A stretch of 39,761 nt of DNA from an uncultured Methanosarcinales archaeon (GTDB lineage: Archaea > Nanobdellota > Nanobdellia > Woesearchaeales > SKGA01). Under the pieces are notes generated by a model. The model had not been told where the DNA came from. It ran no database searches and was given only the letters and a program-made list of their open reading frames with translations. The DNA is taken from NCBI GenBank assembly GCA_964611285.1, contig CAZSZY010000005.1:1-39761 (forward strand), given 5' to 3'. Of this stretch, positions 5,126 to 24,661 are shown piece after piece. The position numbers and the translations under genes were made by a program. Within the stretch, counting starts at the first letter, position 1. Each line of letters opens with the position of its first letter.

Positions 5126-5956
5126 ATGAAACTAAAAGTCTTTGACAAAACAAATACTGAAAAAAAATCAGTAGAACTACCTGTTCAATTTAATGAACCT
5201 GTTAGATTAGACCTTGTTAAAAGAGCAGTATTAGCACTTCAAGCAGCACGACGACAAAAATATGGAGCAATGCCTGGTGCTGGTCAACGACATTCATCAT
5301 TCCTTTCAAAAAGACGTCATAAGTACAAAAGCACTTATGGTATTGGTCAATCTCGAACTCCAAGAAAGGTTTTGAACAGACGAGGAACAAGATTTTATTA
5401 TGTTGGAGCAACCGCACCACAAACAGTTGGTGGTCGTCGAGCTCATCCTCCTAAAGCAGAAAAAGAGTGGGATCAAAAAATTAATGTTCGTGAGAAGAGA
5501 AAAGCTATTCGTTCTGCTCTTACAGCAACTCTTGATGCACAACTCGTTGCACAACGAGGACATAAAGTTCCAACTACCTATCCTTTTGCAATCGATTCTT
5601 CTTTTGAAGAATTAAATAAAACAAAAGAGGTTATACAAGCTCTAAACACATTAGGTCTATCCGAAGAATTAGAACGAGCAAATGTTACTAGCATCCGAGC
5701 AGGTAAAGGCAAACGACGAGGTCGAAAAACCATTACAAAAAAGTCTGTTCTTTTTGTTGTTTCAAAAGATTGTCCGCTTCTAAAGTCAGGAGCAAATATT
5801 CCAGGAGCAGACATTGTTCCAGTAGCGTCACTTAATGCAGAATTACTGGCGCCTGGAACACACCTTGGTCGTTTAACACTTTTTACTGATACTGCGCTTG
5901 ATATATTAGAACAACAACAATTATTCCTAGACGCAAAGAAAGGTGAAATGAAATGA
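5126..5956 (+). CDS. rpl4: 50S ribosomal protein uL4
   Basis: Position after L3, plus GQSRTPRK...GGRRAHPPK and RAGKGKRRGRK motifs. Confidence 0.95.
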   Translation: MKLKVFDKTNTEKKSVELPVQFNEPVRLDLVKRAVLALQAARRQKYGAMPGAGQRHSSFLSKRRHKYKSTYGIGQSRTPRKVLNRRGTRFYYVGATAPQTVGGRRAHPPKAEKEWDQKINVREKRKAIRSALTATLDAQLVAQRGHKVPTTYPFAIDSSFEELNKTKEVIQALNTLGLSEELERANVTSIRAGKGKRRGRKTITKKSVLFVVSKDCPLLKSGANIPGADIVPVASLNAELLAPGTHLGRLTLFTDTALDILEQQQLFLDAKKGEMK

Positions 5957-6201
5957 TTATTCAAGCAGCACTTTCAACAGAAAAAGCAATTCGTCTAATG
6001 GAATCAGAAAACAAATTAGTATTCATTGTCGATATAAAAGCTACAAAAGCAGATGTAAAAAAAGAACTTGAAACGCTTTTCAAGGCAAAGGTAAAAAAAG
6101 TAAATACATTCATTGGTCCAGACACCAAGAAAAAAGCATATGTCACATTTACCGATGAGACTCCTGCAATTGACATTGCAACAAAATTAGAACTCATGTA
6201 A
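5953..6201 (+). CDS. rpl23: 50S ribosomal protein uL23
   Basis: 82 aa; LSTEKAIRLMESENKLVFIVDIKATKADVKKELE is L23-like. The ATGA overlaps the rpl4 stop. Confidence 0.95.
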   Translation: MIIQAALSTEKAIRLMESENKLVFIVDIKATKADVKKELETLFKAKVKKVNTFIGPDTKKKAYVTFTDETPAIDIATKLELM

Positions 6202-6211
6202 GGTTAACAAA

Positions 6212-6928
6212 ATGGGAAAGATGATTACAGCACAAAAACGGGGTAAAGGAAACGCAACTTTTACAGCACCATCCTTTAAGTTTAAAGGAGAAGCTAAAGT
6301 TTTACCTAGAGAAAGTGCTATGATTATGGATCTCGTTCACTGTGCAGGGCACACCGCACCTCTAGCTCAAGTTTTCTATGAAGACGGGTCAGCTGGTTAC
6401 ATTATCGCAGGAGAAGGAATGGCTGTTGGTGAAGAACTTAACATGAAAGATGCATCCGTTTCACACGGTAATGTCCTTGCACTAAAAGATATTCCTGAAG
6501 GCGTTAACGTCTTTAACATCGAAGCACGTCCAAATGATGGCGGAAAATTCGTTCGTGGTAGCGGAACAACTGCAAAAATCATTTCAAAAGTAAAGGATGG
6601 TGTTATCATTCAATTACCTTCAAAAAAGCAGAAAAAATTTCACCCTGACTGTCGCGCTACAATTGGTGTTGTAGCTGGTGGTGGAAGAGTTGAAAAACCA
6701 TTCCTAAAAGCAGGAAAGAAATTTTACGCTGCAAAAGCTCGAAACAAATATTGGCCAGTTGTGTCAGCAAGTGCAATGAACGCAGTTGCTCACCCATTTG
6801 GTAACAAAAGAACAGCACGTAAATCAAAAGCAAAACCCGCACCTAAGAACGCTCCACCTGGACGACGTGTTGGTGCAATCAGACCTCGTCAAACAGGAAG
6901 ATCTCGTGGTAAACGGGTTAAAGGATAA
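6212..6928 (+). CDS. rpl2: 50S ribosomal protein uL2
   Basis: GGKFVRGSGTTAKII and SAMNAVAHPFGNKRTARK motifs, plus synteny. Confidence 0.97.
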   Translation: MGKMITAQKRGKGNATFTAPSFKFKGEAKVLPRESAMIMDLVHCAGHTAPLAQVFYEDGSAGYIIAGEGMAVGEELNMKDASVSHGNVLALKDIPEGVNVFNIEARPNDGGKFVRGSGTTAKIISKVKDGVIIQLPSKKQKKFHPDCRATIGVVAGGGRVEKPFLKAGKKFYAAKARNKYWPVVSASAMNAVAHPFGNKRTARKSKAKPAPKNAPPGRRVGAIRPRQTGRSRGKRVKG

Positions 6929-6933
6929 ATAAA

Positions 6934-7296
6934 ATGGCAATAAAAGTTTTCAAATTCAAAGGCAAGACGATTGGGGAATTAAAAGAATTATCTATTGATG
7001 ATTTCATGATGTTACTTCCTTCACGTCAACGAAGATCCTACAAGAGAGGATTTTCAGACGAAAAGAAAAAACTTATCGCAAAAATACAAAAAAAAGACAA
7101 CGTAAAAACTCATATTCGTGATTTTATTATTCTGCCTCTCATGGTCGGAAAAACTATTCACATTCATACTGGTAAAGCATTCGTTCCTCTAGTTGTTCTA
7201 GATGAAATGATTGGTCACTCTCTTGGCGACTTCGCACTTACTAGAAAACGAGTAGCACACACAAGTGTTGGCGTAACAAACAAACCGAAAAAATAA
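6934..7296 (+). CDS. rps19: 30S ribosomal protein uS19
   Basis: LPSRQRRSYKRG and IHIHTGKAFVPLVV...IGHSLGDFALTRK motifs, plus synteny. Confidence 0.96.
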   Translation: MAIKVFKFKGKTIGELKELSIDDFMMLLPSRQRRSYKRGFSDEKKKLIAKIQKKDNVKTHIRDFIILPLMVGKTIHIHTGKAFVPLVVLDEMIGHSLGDFALTRKRVAHTSVGVTNKPKK

Positions 7297-7306
7297 GGAT
7301 TAAAAA

Positions 7307-7987
7307 ATGACTACATATGCATTCAAAAATGATGGCAATGATACAGCTAAGGCCTATGGCTCTAACCTAGACATATCTGTAAAAACATCAATTAACATTT
7401 GCAATAAAATTCGTGGTCTAGATGCACAAAAAGCAATAGTTCTCTTAGCAAGAGTACAAAATAAAGAAGAAGCAATTCCTTTCACTCGGTTCACAGATGG
7501 TGTAGGTCATCGAAGAGGAATGGCATCTGGTCGTTATCCTCTTAAAGCATCAGCCGCAATTAGTGATATTATTAAATCTGCAGTTGCAAATGCAGCAAAC
7601 AAAGGTCTTGCTGAAGAACTAGAAATTGTACATATATGCGCACACAAAGCAGGAAGTCCTATGCATCAAGGACGTCAACAACGACGAGCAATGAAAAGAA
7701 CTCATATTGAAGTTGTCCTAAAAGAATCAGAAGTAAAAGCAAAACCTGCAAAGAAAAAAGCAGAAGCTAAATCAAAATCAAAACAAGTAACGCAGAACAC
7801 TGAAAAACCGAAAGCAGATGTTGCGCCTGTTGTCCCTAAAGGATCAAAATCAGAAGAAAAAAAGTCAAAGGATAAACCAGAATCTGTTAAGAAAACTGAA
7901 GAAAAATCCGTGGCTGTTGAAAAATCACAGTCAGAAAAGCTGGACGCCGCAAAGCCGAAAGTAGTCGAGGGGTCTAAGGAACAATGA
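7307..7987 (+). CDS. rpl22: 50S ribosomal protein uL22 with about 85-aa K/E/S-rich C-terminal extension
   Basis: The L22 core is AKAYGSNLDISVKTSINICNKIRG...GHRRGMASGRYPLKA...HIEVVL. The low-complexity tail begins at about residue 139. Confidence 0.95.
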   Translation: MTTYAFKNDGNDTAKAYGSNLDISVKTSINICNKIRGLDAQKAIVLLARVQNKEEAIPFTRFTDGVGHRRGMASGRYPLKASAAISDIIKSAVANAANKGLAEELEIVHICAHKAGSPMHQGRQQRRAMKRTHIEVVLKESEVKAKPAKKKAEAKSKSKQVTQNTEKPKADVAPVVPKGSKSEEKKSKDKPESVKKTEEKSVAVEKSQSEKLDAAKPKVVEGSKEQ

Positions 7988-8853
7988 TTGAAAGAAAATT
8001 CGTTGCACAAAATTTCAAAGAATTCCAAATCAAGGAATACATCAAGAAAGAATTAAGTAGAGTTGGTTTAAGTAACGTTAAACTTCAAAGAACCAGTCTT
8101 GGTGAAAAAATCATTATTTCCGCATCACGCCCAGGTTTAGTAGTTGGTCGAGGAGGCGCAACCATACAACGTCTTACCAGAGAACTACGAGCAAAATTCA
8201 AATTAGAAAATCCTCAAATTGAAATTGAGGAAATTACAGACATTAGCATGGACTCAGGTGTTATCGCTGAAATGATTGTTAATCAATTAGAAAGATTCGG
8301 CACACAAAGGTTCAAAGGCATCGGTCACAAAACATTAGAATCAGTAATGAGAGGAGGCGCACTTGGTGTAGAGATCCTTATCTCAGGAAAAATACCTTCA
8401 TCACGAGCAAAAACTTGGCGATTTGTTGATGGTTACATGAAAAAGTGTGGCGACTTAGCAATCACAGGTGTTAGCACTGCAAAAGAATTTGCAAAATTAA
8501 AAACAGGAATTGTTGGTGTACAAGTAAGAATTATGCCAGGAACAACCGTTCTTCCTGATCAGATTACATTCCACGAAATTGAAGCTCTTTCAGGGCCAGT
8601 TATTGAAGAAGTAGACACTAAAGTAGAACCAGATGCAGAAGCAACCTCTAAAGAAACAACTGAAGAGAAACCAAAAAAAGAATCAAAGAAGACTGCAAAA
8701 ACAACAACTAAAACACGAAACAACACCACGCCTCGCTCTGGCGTAAACAAAGTTGCTGGTGCGCAGAAACAAGAAGTTTCTAGCGAAACAACGAAAAAGG
8801 TTGCAAAGACAGAAAAGCAGACCGCTGTAAAGCAGGAGGCTGATGAGAAGTGA
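7984..8853 (+). CDS. rps3: 30S ribosomal protein uS3 with K/T/E-rich C-terminal extension
   Basis: KH-domain core (ISASRPGLVVGRGGATIQRLTRELR, GHKTLESVMRGGALGVEILISGK). The tail carries NKVAGAQKQEVSS. The ATGA overlaps the rpl22 stop. Confidence 0.96.
   Translation: MIERKFVAQNFKEFQIKEYIKKELSRVGLSNVKLQRTSLGEKIIISASRPGLVVGRGGATIQRLTRELRAKFKLENPQIEIEEITDISMDSGVIAEMIVNQLERFGTQRFKGIGHKTLESVMRGGALGVEILISGKIPSSRAKTWRFVDGYMKKCGDLAITGVSTAKEFAKLKTGIVGVQVRIMPGTTVLPDQITFHEIEALSGPVIEEVDTKVEPDAEATSKETTEEKPKKESKKTAKTTTKTRNNTTPRSGVNKVAGAQKQEVSSETTKKVAKTEKQTAVKQEADEK
8752..8786 (+). repeat. Copy 1 of a conserved 35-nt module (gttgctggtgcgcagaaacaagaagtttctagcga) inside the rps3 tail
   Basis: 34/35 identical to 15606-15640. 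Contains CGC-AGAAAC-AAGAA-GTTTCT-A-GCG hairpin potential. Confidence 0.9.
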
Positions 8854-20311: not shown

Positions 20312-20449
20312 GATACTTCTTTTACGACCTTCACTGGTCAGTCCCACATAATATATATAAATATCCCAACCTCACCCATTTCTAAGGCAACCCCCTCATC
20401 AGAATCGTTGGTGGGTGAAATAAGAAGGGAAACCAAGGAGGTCTTAGCC

Positions 20450-20728
20450 ATGGAAAACATAAATACAGATAAAAATAGTCCCGAGCGAAAGTTTCGGGCA
20501 AGTCCAGTTACAGCAACAATCTGGACAAATGAAGCAAAAGGAAAAGATGGAGAAACAAACCTGTTTCGAACCATTACTTTAGACAGAACCTACAAAGACA
20601 AAGAAGGTTCTTGGAAAAAAACGAATTCTTTTCGTGTAAACGACTTGCCAAAAGCAGTTTTGGTACTCAATAAAGCGTTTGAATATGTCAGCATTAAAGA
20701 AGAAGGCGACATTATAGGAGAAGACTAA
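20450..20728 (+). CDS. Small PC4/YdbC-like putative ssDNA-binding protein
   Basis: 92 aa from ATG 20450, with AAGGAGG 7 nt upstream. FRASPVTATIWTNE...LFRTITLDRTYKDKEGSWKKTNSFRVNDLPKAVLVLNKAFEYV resembles the PC4 beta-sheet-plus-helix pattern (...IDIREYW.D..GE.KPGRKGISL..EQW..L). Assignment is by eye only. Confidence 0.45.
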   Translation: MENINTDKNSPERKFRASPVTATIWTNEAKGKDGETNLFRTITLDRTYKDKEGSWKKTNSFRVNDLPKAVLVLNKAFEYVSIKEEGDIIGED

Positions 20729-21778: not shown

Positions 21779-22825
21779 ATGATACCTTTAAAAAAGGATT
21801 TCAAACAGGGAAATGTCTCCCTCAAAGTCACTTTATCAGATGATTTGTGGTATTTATCACATATTATAGCACCTGGTGATGAAATGACAATGAAAACCGA
21901 GCGTAAGCTTAAGTTAGGTAGTTCGGACACTAATATGAAAGTTGTTCGAAAACAAATGGTGTTGCGTCTACGAATTGAATCAGTTGATTTATCTGATGCA
22001 ACGCAACTTCGCGTAAAAGGCACTGTTGTCTCAGGTCCGGAAGATGTTCCTCATGGTTCATATCACACATTCGGTATTAGTGTAGATGGATCATTTACTT
22101 TGCACAAACCGTCATGGCCAACATACCTCGTAGACAAACTTGATGAAGCGTTAGCAAATAGTTCTCAATCAGTAATTATTGCGCAATATGACAGAGAACA
22201 AGCGCTTTTTTCTTTAGTACGTCAAACAGGAATAGAGCATCTTGCCGAGATTAAAGTTGCTGTTGCTAAAAAACAATATACTCAGTCAACAAATGGTTCG
22301 TTGTATGAGCAAATTATTCAAAAAGTTAACGAATACGTTTCCTCTTACAAAGCAACAGGTGTGGTTTTTGCAAGTGCTGATTTTTGGAAAAAATATGTGC
22401 AAGAAAAATTATCTCCTGAATTAACCAAAATTAGTATTTTTGTTTCTACTCCTGAAGTTTCTCGCGCTAGCGTTGGAAAATTATTAACTAGACCCGAACT
22501 TCATCAATTGCTTGCAAATCAACGTTTACAAAAAGAAGAATCTTTAGTTGATGAGATTCTAAAAAAACTAGATCAAGACTTAGCAGTTTATGGTTTTGAT
22601 GATGTGAAAGTTGCTGCAAATTCAGGTTCCATAGAGAAACTCACAGTTACAGAAAAATTTCTTGTGAATAAAAAAGAAGAAGGATTATATGATGAATTAG
22701 ATACTGTTCTAAAAGCTGTTGATATATCTAAAGGTAAAGTTTTATTTTTGCATGCAGAGCAAACAACAAAAATAATAGATGGTTTGGGAGGAATAGTTGG
22801 TACCTTACGATGGAAAACGAATTAA
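21779..22825 (+). CDS. pelA: Pelota (aPelota/Dom34) ribosome rescue factor
   Basis: LSDDLWYLSHIIAPGDEMTMKTERK is a typical Pelota N-terminus. 348 aa with eRF1-like domain organisation. Confidence 0.88.
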   Translation: MIPLKKDFKQGNVSLKVTLSDDLWYLSHIIAPGDEMTMKTERKLKLGSSDTNMKVVRKQMVLRLRIESVDLSDATQLRVKGTVVSGPEDVPHGSYHTFGISVDGSFTLHKPSWPTYLVDKLDEALANSSQSVIIAQYDREQALFSLVRQTGIEHLAEIKVAVAKKQYTQSTNGSLYEQIIQKVNEYVSSYKATGVVFASADFWKKYVQEKLSPELTKISIFVSTPEVSRASVGKLLTRPELHQLLANQRLQKEESLVDEILKKLDQDLAVYGFDDVKVAANSGSIEKLTVTEKFLVNKKEEGLYDELDTVLKAVDISKGKVLFLHAEQTTKIIDGLGGIVGTLRWKTN

Positions 22826-23637
22826 AATTTTCTTCAGAACTAGTTTCACTTATTAAAGAAAAACAAGAGTTATCTTCACTTGATGATGAGTTTGTATACA
22901 AAATATTATCTTCTCAAACTATTGAAATACCTGATAAATACAAAACATTTGCGCAGTTCAGAAAAAGCTCTGCTTGTAAAAAAATAGTTTCTGAAACAAG
23001 AAAAAAACTACGAGAAGTATACGGGGTTTTCATAAGAAAACCTCTTGCAAAACTTTCAACAAAGGACACAAACACCATTTTACAATCACATCAATCAACT
23101 CATGAACGTTTTGACTACTTAGAAATTATCTACGAATTATTATTTGATAAATTATTTGCTTTGGGTTTACCTAAAAAATTTTCACTCTTAGATATTGCTT
23201 GCGGGTTTACACCTTTTTCACTTTCTTATTTTCCTATTAAACCAACCAATTATGTTGCGTGCGATTTATCTTCACAGGATATGAAAAGCGTGCAACATTT
23301 TTTTGATGAACAACATCAAAAAAGTATCACAAAAGCAATTGATGTTGTCAGCGATGAATTTCTTTTATGGGTGACTTCTCAGAAAACAAATGTTTGCTTT
23401 TTGCTTAAAGCATTAGATTCTTTTGAACAAAGAACAAGAAATAGTTCAAAACCAATTTTAATAGCAATCCCTGCAAGGTTTTTAGTGGTTTCATTCGCAT
23501 TAAGATCTATCGGTGGTAATGCAGTAATTGGAGCGGAAAAGAGAACTTGGTTTGAAAAATTCTGCACAAAACAAAATTGGGCTTTTGAAACAATCCAAGT
23601 CCCAAACGAAATTTTTTACATCGTTAGCAAGGAGTAA
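22810..23637 (+). CDS. FmrO-family 16S rRNA methyltransferase homologue (ArmA/RmtB/Sgm-like, m7G1405 type)
   Basis: Collinear matches to recalled ArmA/RmtB motifs: TRKKLREVYGVF (RmtB TRLHGICGAY), HQSTHERF (HASTKERL), LLDIACGFTPFSL (VLDIACGLNPLAL), VCFLLKALDSFEQR (ALIFKLLPLLEREQ), LVVSFALRSIGG (MAVSFPTRSLGG), NEIFYIVSK (TELIYLIKK). Overlaps pelota by 16 nt. Confidence 0.72.
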   Translation: MENELKFSSELVSLIKEKQELSSLDDEFVYKILSSQTIEIPDKYKTFAQFRKSSACKKIVSETRKKLREVYGVFIRKPLAKLSTKDTNTILQSHQSTHERFDYLEIIYELLFDKLFALGLPKKFSLLDIACGFTPFSLSYFPIKPTNYVACDLSSQDMKSVQHFFDEQHQKSITKAIDVVSDEFLLWVTSQKTNVCFLLKALDSFEQRTRNSSKPILIAIPARFLVVSFALRSIGGNAVIGAEKRTWFEKFCTKQNWAFETIQVPNEIFYIVSKE

Positions 23638-23851: not shown

Positions 23852-24661
23852 ATGATAGTTAAGGAAGAGTTTTTGAGTAAGTTACGACGCTACTTCTCAT
23901 TGAATTTGTATGAAGCGAAAGTGTGGACTGCTCTTCTCTCTAGAGGTGTTAGTACTGCAGGTGAACTTTCAGACATTGCAAACGTGCCAAGATCACGAAG
24001 CTACGATGTTTTAGAGTCACTTGAAAAAAAAGGATTTGTTGTGATGAAGATTGGGAAACCAATTAAGTATATTGCAGTTCCGCCAAAAGAAGTTCTAGAA
24101 CGAGTTAAGAAAAATTTATTGACAGCAACAGAATCGCATGTTAAAAAACTTGATGAACTAAAAAGTACGGATCTTATTGCTGAATTAAATTCATTACATA
24201 CACAGGGTGTTGAACTTGTTGAACCAACTGATCTTTCAGGTTCGCTACGTGGTCGACTTAATTTATACAACCACATAGAGTTTACAATTCGTAGTGCAGA
24301 AGAAACTGTTACTATGATGACTACAACACAAGGGCTTATCAGAAAAGCAGAAGGACTCAAACCTTTGTTTGAAGAACTTTCAAAAAGAGGCGTAAAAATT
24401 AATATTGCCGCGCCTTTAACAACTGATGAAGCAAAAGCAGTAGCAAAAGATTTAGAAGGAATTGCTGAAGTTCGTCACCTAGATCACATTAGTGCACGAT
24501 TTGTTGTCGTTGATGGAACTGAAGTGATCTTTATGGTAATGAATGATGATGATGTACATCCAACATATGATATTGGTATTTGGGTAAACACAGCATTCTT
24601 TGCTTCGGCTTTAGAACAACTCTTTGAGCTTGCATGGGTTACGCTTAAAACAAAGGTATAA
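23852..24661 (+). CDS. TrmB-family transcriptional regulator
   Basis: N-terminal wHTH LYEAKVWTALLSRGVSTAGELSDIANVPRSRSYDVLESLEKKGFV, a coiled-coil linker and a C-terminal TrmB-like domain. GGAGG lies upstream. Confidence 0.85.
   Translation: MIVKEEFLSKLRRYFSLNLYEAKVWTALLSRGVSTAGELSDIANVPRSRSYDVLESLEKKGFVVMKIGKPIKYIAVPPKEVLERVKKNLLTATESHVKKLDELKSTDLIAELNSLHTQGVELVEPTDLSGSLRGRLNLYNHIEFTIRSAEETVTMMTTTQGLIRKAEGLKPLFEELSKRGVKINIAAPLTTDEAKAVAKDLEGIAEVRHLDHISARFVVVDGTEVIFMVMNDDDVHPTYDIGIWVNTAFFASALEQLFELAWVTLKTKV

Follow-up and report, generated by a model that had tools for sequence, protein, structure and literature searches.

To our knowledge, m7G at the equivalent of G1405 is so far known only as an antibiotic-resistance mark. 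Sgm of Micromonospora zionensis (PDB 3LCU/3LCV), a producer-type 16S rRNA m7G1405 methyltransferase, is the product of a self-resistance gene in an antibiotic-producing bacterium; the acquired enzymes RmtB, RmtC, RmtF and ArmA are plasmid-borne, mostly on conjugative plasmids. The SAM carboxylate is bound by H102, S104, T105 and R108 in Sgm (PMC2896518) and by S107 and R111 in RmtC (PMC10054953), while the SAM ribose is held by Sgm D156 and RmtC D160 (PMC2896518, PMC10054953). In RmtC, the aromatic Y60 and a universally conserved lysine hold the flipped guanine, Lys204 touching N7 of flipped G1405 (PMC10054953). Its N1 residues K20, Y21, R50 and His54 are all essential for activity, the first three through 30S docking and His54 with no measurable effect on binding (PMC10054953). 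Loop237-246 of RmtC, which passes from disorder to order, distorts h44. An archaeal member has also been described: NEQ545 of Nanoarchaeum equitans, presented by Husain et al. in 2010 as the 'first archaeal ortholog' of the Arm family (PMC2896518). Its catalytic-domain motifs are well conserved, its helical N-terminal domain is strongly diverged, and its function was left open (PMC2896518).

The gene described here adds a member to this archaeal kind, reported since 2010. It occupies 22810..23637 on the + strand of the window, that is, of the whole 39,761-nucleotide stretch of DNA that was analysed; a check of the window's reading frames and translations gives an ATG start and 275 amino acids followed by a stop. 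Conservation of the N-terminal pattern MExxxxF..EL in relatives supports this start codon. Going by its published description, NEQ545 is likewise a chromosomal Arm/FmrO member of a DPANN archaeon. Our gene, however, falls in a Woesearchaeota branch and is ~30% identical to Nanoarchaeales-type members; moreover, the 2010 account of NEQ545 comes without pelota coupling, clade size or vertical inheritance (PMC2896518). We think it probable that the gene encodes a native, vertically inherited Woesearchaeota SAM-dependent RNA guanine-N7 methyltransferase of the Arm/Rmt/Kgm (FmrO) family, with the G1405 equivalent of its own small subunit as the likely target.

The family assignment rests on the reading frame, on Pfam and NCBIfam profiles and on AF2 and Foldseek results. 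Pfam FmrO (PF07091) matches residues 86-271 with E=2.2e-21 and 76.9 bits, well over the gathering cutoff of 27, and is likewise present in 41/41 close homologues. The generic NCBIfam Rmt model (Rmt_gen, NF000466) gives E=1.4e-33; its 116.3 bits fall short of the equivalog cutoff of 250, so the protein does not rank among the equivalogs of the characterised enzymes. The models for RmtB/C/D/E/F/G/H, with cutoffs of 500-550, give scores of 29-53 bits. In the PDB, significant sequence matches are limited to Sgm, RmtB, RmtC and ArmA, and a family profile run against the PDB retrieves Sgm at 2.4e-35, RmtC at 1e-31 and ArmA at 6e-29. Neither the PDB sequence matches nor the top 50 fold matches include a Kam/NpmA chain, and the protein is of the FmrO/Arm-Rmt G1405 type, not of the Kam/NpmA A1408 type. 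An earlier note, written from the sequence alone, had proposed an ArmA/RmtB (FmrO) homologue, suggesting PF07091 as a check and leaving the choice between G1405 and A1408 types to be made. Its reading frame and family similarity are confirmed, far beyond chance, and all the motifs it listed are found in the translation, among them FLLKAL (residues 197-202), VSFALRSIGG (227-236) and EIFYI (267-271).

The predicted structure tells the same story. In the AF2 model (pLDDT 93, pTM 0.89), the protein adopts the two-domain fold of the FmrO family, with helical N1/N2 followed by a class I Rossmann domain. All of the top 15 Foldseek matches in the PDB are G1405 methyltransferases (Sgm/RmtB/RmtC/RmtF/ArmA, E 1e-16 to 1e-10); those that follow are unrelated methyltransferases at 1e-7. 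Sgm is the best match by both sequence profile and structure, its full-length chain aligning with TM 0.73/0.77 over 287 alignment columns (E=1e-16), although identity in the structural alignment is ~19%. RmtB, RmtC, RmtF and ArmA share the two-domain architecture and the SAM site with our protein at 24-25% identity. The N-terminal helical domain (residues 1-85; 22810..23064, + strand), presumed from its modelled helices (8-15, 26-34, 47-51 and 54-70) and basic pI to be the rRNA-docking N1/N2 region, has a pI of 9.52, the C-terminal domain one of only 6.49; the family median for the N-terminal domain is 9.65, and a basic N-terminal domain is common to our protein, Sgm, RmtB and RmtC. The C-terminal methyltransferase domain (residues 86-275; 23065..23634, + strand), delimited by the Pfam match, the model and the profile alignment to Sgm, RmtC and ArmA, shows alternating strands and helices in the model.

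Selection was assessed through residue conservation in an alignment of 255 relatives instead of dN/dS, because synonymous sites are saturated at protein identities of 65% or lower. The HQSTHER motif (residues 94-100; 23089..23109, + strand), which by analogy would bind the SAM carboxylate, has S96, E99 and R100 conserved at 100%. The SAM motif region, LLDIACGFTPFSL (residues 126-138), includes SAM-binding motif I, LLDIACG (residues 126-132; 23185..23205, + strand), which aligns to DLACG of Sgm; its D128 and G132 are invariant (alignment A3). The acidic D152 (23263..23265, + strand), counterpart of RmtC D160 and Sgm D156 is a predicted SAM-ribose ligand; 75% of relatives have D there and the remaining 25% E, so that the position is D/E throughout. 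D178 aligns with the SAM-binding D182 of Sgm. Residue by residue, Sgm H102, S104, T105, R108, D156 and D182 correspond to H94, S96, T97, R100, D152 and D178, all identical. The residues around the flipped guanine are kept as well: K200 (23407..23409, + strand), equivalent to the catalytic RmtC Lys204, is present in 100% of relatives, as are the equivalents of RmtC S107, E110 and R111, and the aromatic stacker F74, at the place of RmtC Y60, is always F/Y, F occurring in 90% of relatives and Y in 10%.

The docking surface departs further from RmtC. From the N1 set K20, Y21, R50 and His54, only the N1 arginine R50 is retained, as R64 (R/K in 100% of the family). In a loop where the alignment is uncertain, E20/L21 take the places of RmtC K20/Y21 (E in 76% and L in 77% of the family), and the near-universal His54 corresponds to Arg68 (family R 75%, H 21%). 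K18, nearly invariant and two residues upstream of E20, might stand in for K20. Ser61 at RmtC K47 and Asn237 at RmtC R241 are minority states among the 255 relatives, where the latter position is K in 67% and R in 13% (K/R 80%). N237 belongs to the loop of residues 232-245 (RSIGGNAVIGAEKR; 23503..23544, + strand), the equivalent of RmtC Loop237-246. This loop is one residue shorter than that of Sgm and is where the model is least confident (pLDDT 71-83), consistent with the disorder-to-order behaviour of its RmtC counterpart; within it, I240 stands at RmtC M245, a position that is M in 44%, I in 44% and M/I/L/F in ~97% of the family. With the residues at K20/Y21/His54/K47/R241 changed, the protein could dock in a different geometry and might even act on a different nucleotide.

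It is possible, though we hold it doubtful, that the same fold and chemistry serve a different target: another guanine, for example a neighbouring G in h44/h45 of the archaeal small subunit, one in a pre-30S intermediate or one in some other RNA, reached by a diverged docking domain. The E/L/R states that most of the family carry at the K20/Y21/H54 equivalents point that way, as do the score far under the Rmt equivalog cutoff and the long branch that parts the archaeal clade from the characterised enzymes; the linkage to a Dim2/Pno1-like gene in two loci (L026 and L027) hints at late small-subunit maturation and not at mature subunits. Yet the residues touching SAM and the flipped guanine are all invariant, most members retain the basic and hydrophobic residues of the loop that distorts h44, the basic N1 face is maintained by K18, R64 and K57, and both domains together can be laid over Sgm and RmtB.

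The RNA side of the reaction could be inspected in a relative. The window contains no 16S gene of its own organism, but the 16S (6561-8011) of L031, a relative bearing the family, contains GCCCGUCA, AAGUCGU and an h45 GGGGAA loop. We take GCCCGUCA to hold G1405, C1407 and A1408, and AAGUCGU to hold A1492, A1493, U1495 and C1496 (E. coli numbering). On this reading, the nucleotides of the FmrO substrate (G1405-C1496, A1408, U1495 and h45 G1515-A1518) are all present in the 16S of that relative.

The most likely function of the protein would be constitutive N7-methylation of the G1405 equivalent in its own small-subunit rRNA; we infer that 30S is the substrate, which nucleotide is modified and what this does for the cell. 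The basic N-terminal helical domain would dock onto the h24/h27/h44/h45 surface of the organism's small ribosomal subunit, while the Rossmann domain with its flexible loop would deform the upper end of helix 44 and turn the guanine that corresponds to E. coli G1405 out of the helix. The invariant Lys200 and the aromatic Phe74 would place this guanine for N7 methylation. Ribosomes modified in this way would, as a result, be insensitive to 4,6-disubstituted deoxystreptamine aminoglycosides.

The upstream partner of the gene is pelota, a ribosome-rescue factor of 348 amino acids (21779..22825, + strand), recognised by Pfam eRF1_1/2/3 and by TIGR00111 (E=7.9e-51; 173.4 bits, just under the cutoff of 177.65). 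It ends 16 nt inside the FmrO frame (overlap 22810..22825, + strand), as the earlier note had pointed out, and the FmrO ATG is made by its Arg-Trp codons (cgATGg). With the ATG lying inside the last codons of pelota, the two genes are translationally coupled. Pelota is kept upstream in relatives, and the FmrO start lies within it in 21/24 pelota-linked sequences, by 4, 13, 16, 19 or 25 nt and always in the same relative frame, which strengthens the co-expression deduced earlier from the overlap. Through such coupling, production of the enzyme would be constitutive and tied to that of a translation factor, making it an inbuilt modifier of the ribosome. A search for transcripts showing pelota-FmrO co-transcription found the stretch in two marine DNA metagenome runs only, and a sigma-70 scan, whose model is not applicable to archaeal promoters, returned 10 promoters against 9.6 expected and 0 terminators.

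Around this pair runs a conserved block, ssb-like-RadA-pelota-FmrO-TrmB-TRAM-S2, whose synteny holds down to 33% identity. Its next gene is a TrmB-family transcription regulator (23852..24661, + strand; Pfam TrmB), 69-95% identical across loci. Whereas Sgm belongs to a producer and the acquired Rmt and ArmA genes to plasmids, this gene is chromosomal and sits in an archaeal translation and repair block: in place of the plasmid, transposon, integron or biosynthetic cluster of resistance genes, its neighbours are RadA, pelota, TrmB, a TRAM protein and ribosomal protein S2. Within the conserved block we found no aminoglycoside biosynthesis, mobile-element or other resistance genes. In L026 and L027, FmrO overlaps not pelota but a KH gene of KRR1/PNO1 (Dim2-like) type. 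When loci were sampled by a TrmB anchor, independently of FmrO, the gene followed pelota in 18/34 pelota loci, a frequency more in keeping with a modifier that cells can do without than with an essential housekeeping enzyme.

Such patchiness also resembles an accessory, environment-dependent trait, and all characterised family members confer aminoglycoside resistance. A native gene could accordingly have been selected as long-standing intrinsic protection against the aminoglycosides of neighbouring microbes. We judge this unlikely: the block lacks the companions expected of resistance, the gene is carried in many habitats, marine, groundwater and sediment metagenomes among them, and the fixed coupling to pelota, or to a Dim2-like factor in other lineages, suggests a part in the life cycle of the ribosome. 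At the molecular level the enzyme would work identically in either case, the selective reason alone being different. From sequence, which can prove neither, we favour a native decoding-centre modification over acquired self-protection.

The gene is native and vertically inherited. Its GC3 of 0.215 lies within the 0.19-0.23 of the neighbouring translation and repair genes, and its GC is similarly alike, in the comparison of composition that the earlier note had called for. FmrO distances among loci correlate with those of pelota (r=0.85) and TrmB (r=0.70), values reached by 0/999 permutations in Mantel tests. The locus scan, run with a narrow family alignment, placed 35/35 GTDB loci in Woesearchaeota/Nanoarchaeota MAGs, and every named database match is from Woesearchaeota or an 'archaeon', few clusters carrying taxon names. 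At least 518 of the 1,089 clusters found (50% identity) belong to the archaeal branch. In the tree, the bacterial enzymes group in a clade of their own (support 0.996) that leaves out 253/255 relatives, and a long branch sets off the archaeal clade from the characterised enzymes. Pelota-linked members occur on either side of the deepest archaeal split, and the Nanoarchaeales-type loci L030 and L031 share one archaeal clade with our gene. Plasmid-borne resistance genes are at most ~25% identical to it. The family comprises hundreds of Woesearchaeota clusters, many of them already labelled automatically by IMG; together with NEQ545, known since 2010 (PMC2896518), they contradict the view that an archaeal copy is unexpected.

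The horizontal origin raised in the earlier note fares no better. That the gene is a recent, horizontally acquired resistance determinant of bacterial origin is suggested by the family name alone, the characterised relatives all coming from producers or plasmids, and this very improbable origin is already contradicted by the neighbour-like GC and GC3, the conserved synteny, the divergence in step with pelota and TrmB, the distinct bacterial clade and the low identity to any plasmid gene. Least credible of all is an inactive pseudo-enzyme or decaying gene: the protein does evolve fast (~45% identity to relatives in which RadA and TrmB keep 80-87%) and is absent from about half of the pelota loci, but its frame is intact, its fold confidently predicted and its SAM-binding and catalytic residues 100% conserved in 255 sequences.

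A native decoding-centre modification would have wider implications. If the predicted activity is real, a mark that medicine knows only as high-level aminoglycoside resistance would be an ordinary inherited ribosome feature in a large uncultured archaeal radiation, with a bearing on the origin of the resistance family and on the effect of m7G1405 on decoding without drug. We put forward a bolder version as a long shot: m7G at the G1405 equivalent may be a constitutive decoding-centre mark in about half of Woesearchaeota lineages, co-translated with pelota since it tunes A-site or decoding-centre behaviour in stalled-ribosome rescue. As part of the same long shot, and given its share of the clusters, the archaeal branch may be an ancient source of the bacterial resistance enzymes. 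A concrete hypothesis for testing comes from the conserved coupling of FmrO translation to pelota. On the practical side, automatic 'resistance gene' calls for the FmrO family in sediment, groundwater and sea water metagenomes will largely concern native archaeal genes, which should not count as mobile resistance.

Two further candidates turned out otherwise. The ORFs of ~275 amino acids downstream of TrmB in loci without FmrO, considered as missed divergent copies, are transketolase N-terminal subunits. Some relatives are fusions of 480 aa whose additional domain, considered as a Kam/NpmA-type A1408 methyltransferase, is a generic Methyltransf_11/25 domain that matches no specific family.

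The ORF at 22810..23637 (+) opens with ATG, encodes 275 amino acids and overlaps by 16 nt the pelota gene (21779..22825 (+), a 348-aa ORF carrying Pfam eRF1_1/2/3; TIGR00111 E=7.9e-51), as described in the earlier note. The motifs quoted there are all found in the translation: HQSTHER, LLDIACGFTPFSL, FLLKAL, VSFALRSIGG and EIFYI. The annotated start is supported by an N-terminus that relatives keep (MExxxxF..EL). The proposed family also stands: in Pfam the protein falls into FmrO (PF07091), with E=2.2e-21 and a score of 76.9 bits where the cutoff is 27. The generic Rmt model of NCBIfam matches at E=1.4e-33 and 116 bits, far under the 250 bits of its equivalog cutoff; scores with the RmtB-H models reach only 29-53 bits.

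Significant PDB sequence matches are limited to Sgm, RmtB, RmtC, ArmA and RmtF; a profile of 23 relatives finds Sgm at 2.4e-35, RmtC at 1e-31 and ArmA at 6e-29. The AlphaFold2 model built from the same alignment is confident (pLDDT 93, pTM 0.89), and every one of its best 15 Foldseek matches in the PDB is a G1405 methyltransferase (E 1e-16 to 1e-10; TM 0.73/0.77 against full-length Sgm), followed by unrelated class I methyltransferases at ~1e-7. Since no A1408-type (Kam/NpmA) enzyme occurs among the PDB sequence matches or the best 50 Foldseek matches, the ORF is placed in the G1405-type branch.

Functional residues were taken from the structure of Sgm (PMC2896518) and the cryo-EM structure of RmtC on the 30S subunit (PMC10054953), and mapped on an alignment of 255 family members with full-length ArmA, RmtB and RmtC from plasmid records and a fragment of Sgm. 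RmtC S107, E110, R111 and K204 correspond to S96, E99, R100 and K200, each conserved in 100% of the 255 members. D160 corresponds to D152 (D/E in 100%), Y60 to F74 (F/Y in 100%) and R50 to R64 (R/K in 100%). The SAM site and the residues holding the flipped guanine are thus intact throughout the family.

The diverged positions lie mainly on the docking surface. RmtC K20/Y21 align to E20/L21 (E in 76% and L in 77% of the family), the near-universal His54 is replaced by Arg68 (R 75%, H 21%) and M245 by Ile240 (M or I in 88%). At two further positions the query carries a minority state: Ser61 for K47 (K in 84% of the family) and Asn237 for R241 (K/R in 80%). In common with the characterised enzymes, the N-terminal domain is basic, with a pI of 9.5 (family median 9.65), compared with 6.5 in the catalytic domain. 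With SAM-site residues kept and docking residues changed, the chemistry looks conserved and the details of 30S recognition do not.

On balance we favour a native small-subunit rRNA guanine-N7 methyltransferase that would act on the G1405 equivalent and be produced alongside pelota. The leading alternative, an enzyme of identical chemistry working at another site or at another stage of maturation, is made plausible by the changed docking residues; we consider it less likely.

The window holds no rRNA gene. A complete archaeal 16S gene (6561-8011 (-), 1328.7 bits) is found by chance in one locus bearing the family, L031 of archaeon UBA583, convergent with FmrO and 631 nt from it. Over h44/h45 the sequence of this gene is ...ACACACUGCCCGUCAAACCA... 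and ...GGUUAAGUCGUCACAAGGUAUCCGUAGGGGAACCUGCGGAUGGAUCACCUCCU, containing what we take, by E. coli numbering, to be G1405, C1407, A1408, A1492, A1493, U1495 and C1496, as well as the h45 GGGGAA loop. Equivalents of these nucleotides and of this loop are contacted by RmtC (PMC10054953). With all of them in place, the clade does possess the substrate site, and we infer that the G1405 equivalent is the methylated position. The same 16S gene has U at the position of E. coli C1400 (ACACACUGCCCG), to our knowledge a nearly universal position.

The ATG of FmrO arises from the penultimate Arg-Trp codons of pelota (cgATGg). The start falls 4, 13, 16, 19 or 25 nt inside pelota, with a constant relative frame, in 21 of the 24 sequences linked to pelota. 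Translational coupling would be expected to show such a geometry, and the co-expression inferred in the earlier note holds at the level of gene arrangement. In two more distant loci (L026 and L027) FmrO overlaps the end of a gene with two KH domains (5471-5989 and 5471-5995, respectively) in place of pelota; this KRR1/PNO1-type gene matches archaeal Dim2/Pno1, a late small-subunit biogenesis factor acting at the 3' end of 16S rRNA. With pelota as with the KH-domain gene, the linkage points to the small ribosomal subunit. FmrO also occurs in variants of ~480-490 aa, fused to a second class I methyltransferase domain of the generic Methyltransf_11/25 type (L036 6001-7449; proteins P0061, P0081, P0135 and P0206). 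The fusion lies directly 3' of pelota in L036 and L037 and adjoins TrmB in L036. Its extra domain is not Kam/NpmA-like.

A horizontal origin, raised in the earlier note, is not borne out. The gene has a GC of 0.312 and a GC3 of 0.215, against a GC3 of 0.19-0.23 for RadA, pelota, TrmB, TRAM and S2, and no compositional break is visible around it in the window; among plasmid-borne genes (1,551 records), none exceeds ~25% identity to the query. The block ssb-like-RadA-pelota-FmrO-TrmB-TRAM-S2 is kept in 12 species, and its core, pelota-FmrO-TrmB, is still present where FmrO identity falls to 33-39%. Pairwise distances of FmrO in 20 loci follow the distances of pelota (Spearman 0.85) and of TrmB (0.70); none of 999 Mantel permutations reached the observed value. 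Trees set the four bacterial enzymes apart as a clade with a support of 0.996; this clade sits on a long branch and lies outside 253 of the 255 relatives. With the root placed on these enzymes, pelota-linked members fall to either side of the deepest split among the archaea, so pelota linkage is ancestral and relocations came later. We read the gene as native and vertically inherited.

A 106-aa ORF without Pfam match lies directly 5' of radA (20408-20728 (+)); 12 related loci have it in this place too, with 62-83% identity. The window's pelota is divergent, scoring 173.4 bits with TIGR00111, just below the 177.65 cutoff, and only 20.1 bits against 27.1 for the central eRF1_2 domain. Among relatives the evolution of pelota is as rapid as that of FmrO, the mean pairwise distances being 0.57 and 0.56, respectively.

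The closest named proteins belong to Candidatus Woesearchaeota archaea. When GTDB was scanned with one genome for each species, 35 loci were obtained, and every one comes from a MAG of Woesearchaeota, Nanoarchaeota or Nanoarchaeia. Among 1.84 billion representatives, searched exhaustively, 1,089 clusters (50% identity) match at E≤1e-3, and 518 clusters do so at E≤1e-10. Because the characterised enzymes score ~42 bits against the query, which rescales from the exhaustive-search scores to only roughly E≈1e-6 in that library, each of the 518 clusters would lie nearer to the archaeal FmrO type than any characterised enzyme does. Many family proteins carry the automatic IMG label '16S rRNA (guanine(1405)-N(7))-methyltransferase'. 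Several binchicken MAGs named 'uncultured Methanosarcinales archaeon' (L001, L003, L004, L007, L009, L012, L024, L029) match Woesearchaeota-type FmrO, and the first five, with enough flank, match the window in the complete Woesearchaeota gene order; their organism name is probably erroneous or a placeholder. Some contigs binned as Woesearchaeota or Nanoarchaeia have bacterial-looking FmrO neighbours: an HTH and sigma-70 (regions 2, 3, 4) fusion (L032 6715-8451), a phage-type integrase and a GGDEF protein (L025 5195-6004 and 6830-7471) and a full MutS (L029 3473-5965). Mis-binning of bacterial contigs, or transfer, may account for them.

Contrary to the earlier note, an archaeal copy is not unexpected: NEQ545 of Nanoarchaeum equitans was reported in 2010 as 'the first archaeal ortholog' of the Arm family, and its catalytic motifs were described as conserved, its N-terminal domain as diverged and its function as unclear (Husain et al. 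2010, PMC2896518). Our literature search found no further mention of NEQ545 and no paper combining FmrO with archaea or G1405 with DPANN; for 16S-RMTases in archaea and intrinsic or environmental m7G1405, the titles and abstracts found dealt with bacteria or general RNA modification only. What is added here is the family-wide residue map, the conserved geometry of the pelota overlap, the co-inheritance test and an FmrO-independent estimate of occupancy.

For the latter, 80 metagenome loci were gathered with the highly conserved TrmB regulator as bait, and occupancy was counted in the 34 showing pelota and at least 900 nt downstream. FmrO directly follows pelota in 18 of these TrmB-anchored loci (~53% occupancy) and is missing there in 16, where pelota abuts TrmB or an acetyl-CoA synthetase gene comes next. 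The latter count, which refers to the pelota site only, tempers any description of the gene as 'core housekeeping': it is common and old, and tightly coupled wherever it occurs, but apparently dispensable.

The acetyl-CoA synthetase gene (~650 aa) fills the pelota-TrmB slot in L056 (1811-3766), L061 and L071, and these lineages have split transketolase genes 3' of TrmB, which sets the regulator beside carbon-metabolism genes there. In the window the TrmB-family regulator (23852-24661 (+); relatives L041-L120) lies 3' of FmrO. It is more conserved than RadA, with 69-90% identity and ~150 invariant columns across 11 species, against identities down to 30-50% for pelota and FmrO, and its relatives occur in more than 562 metagenome loci.
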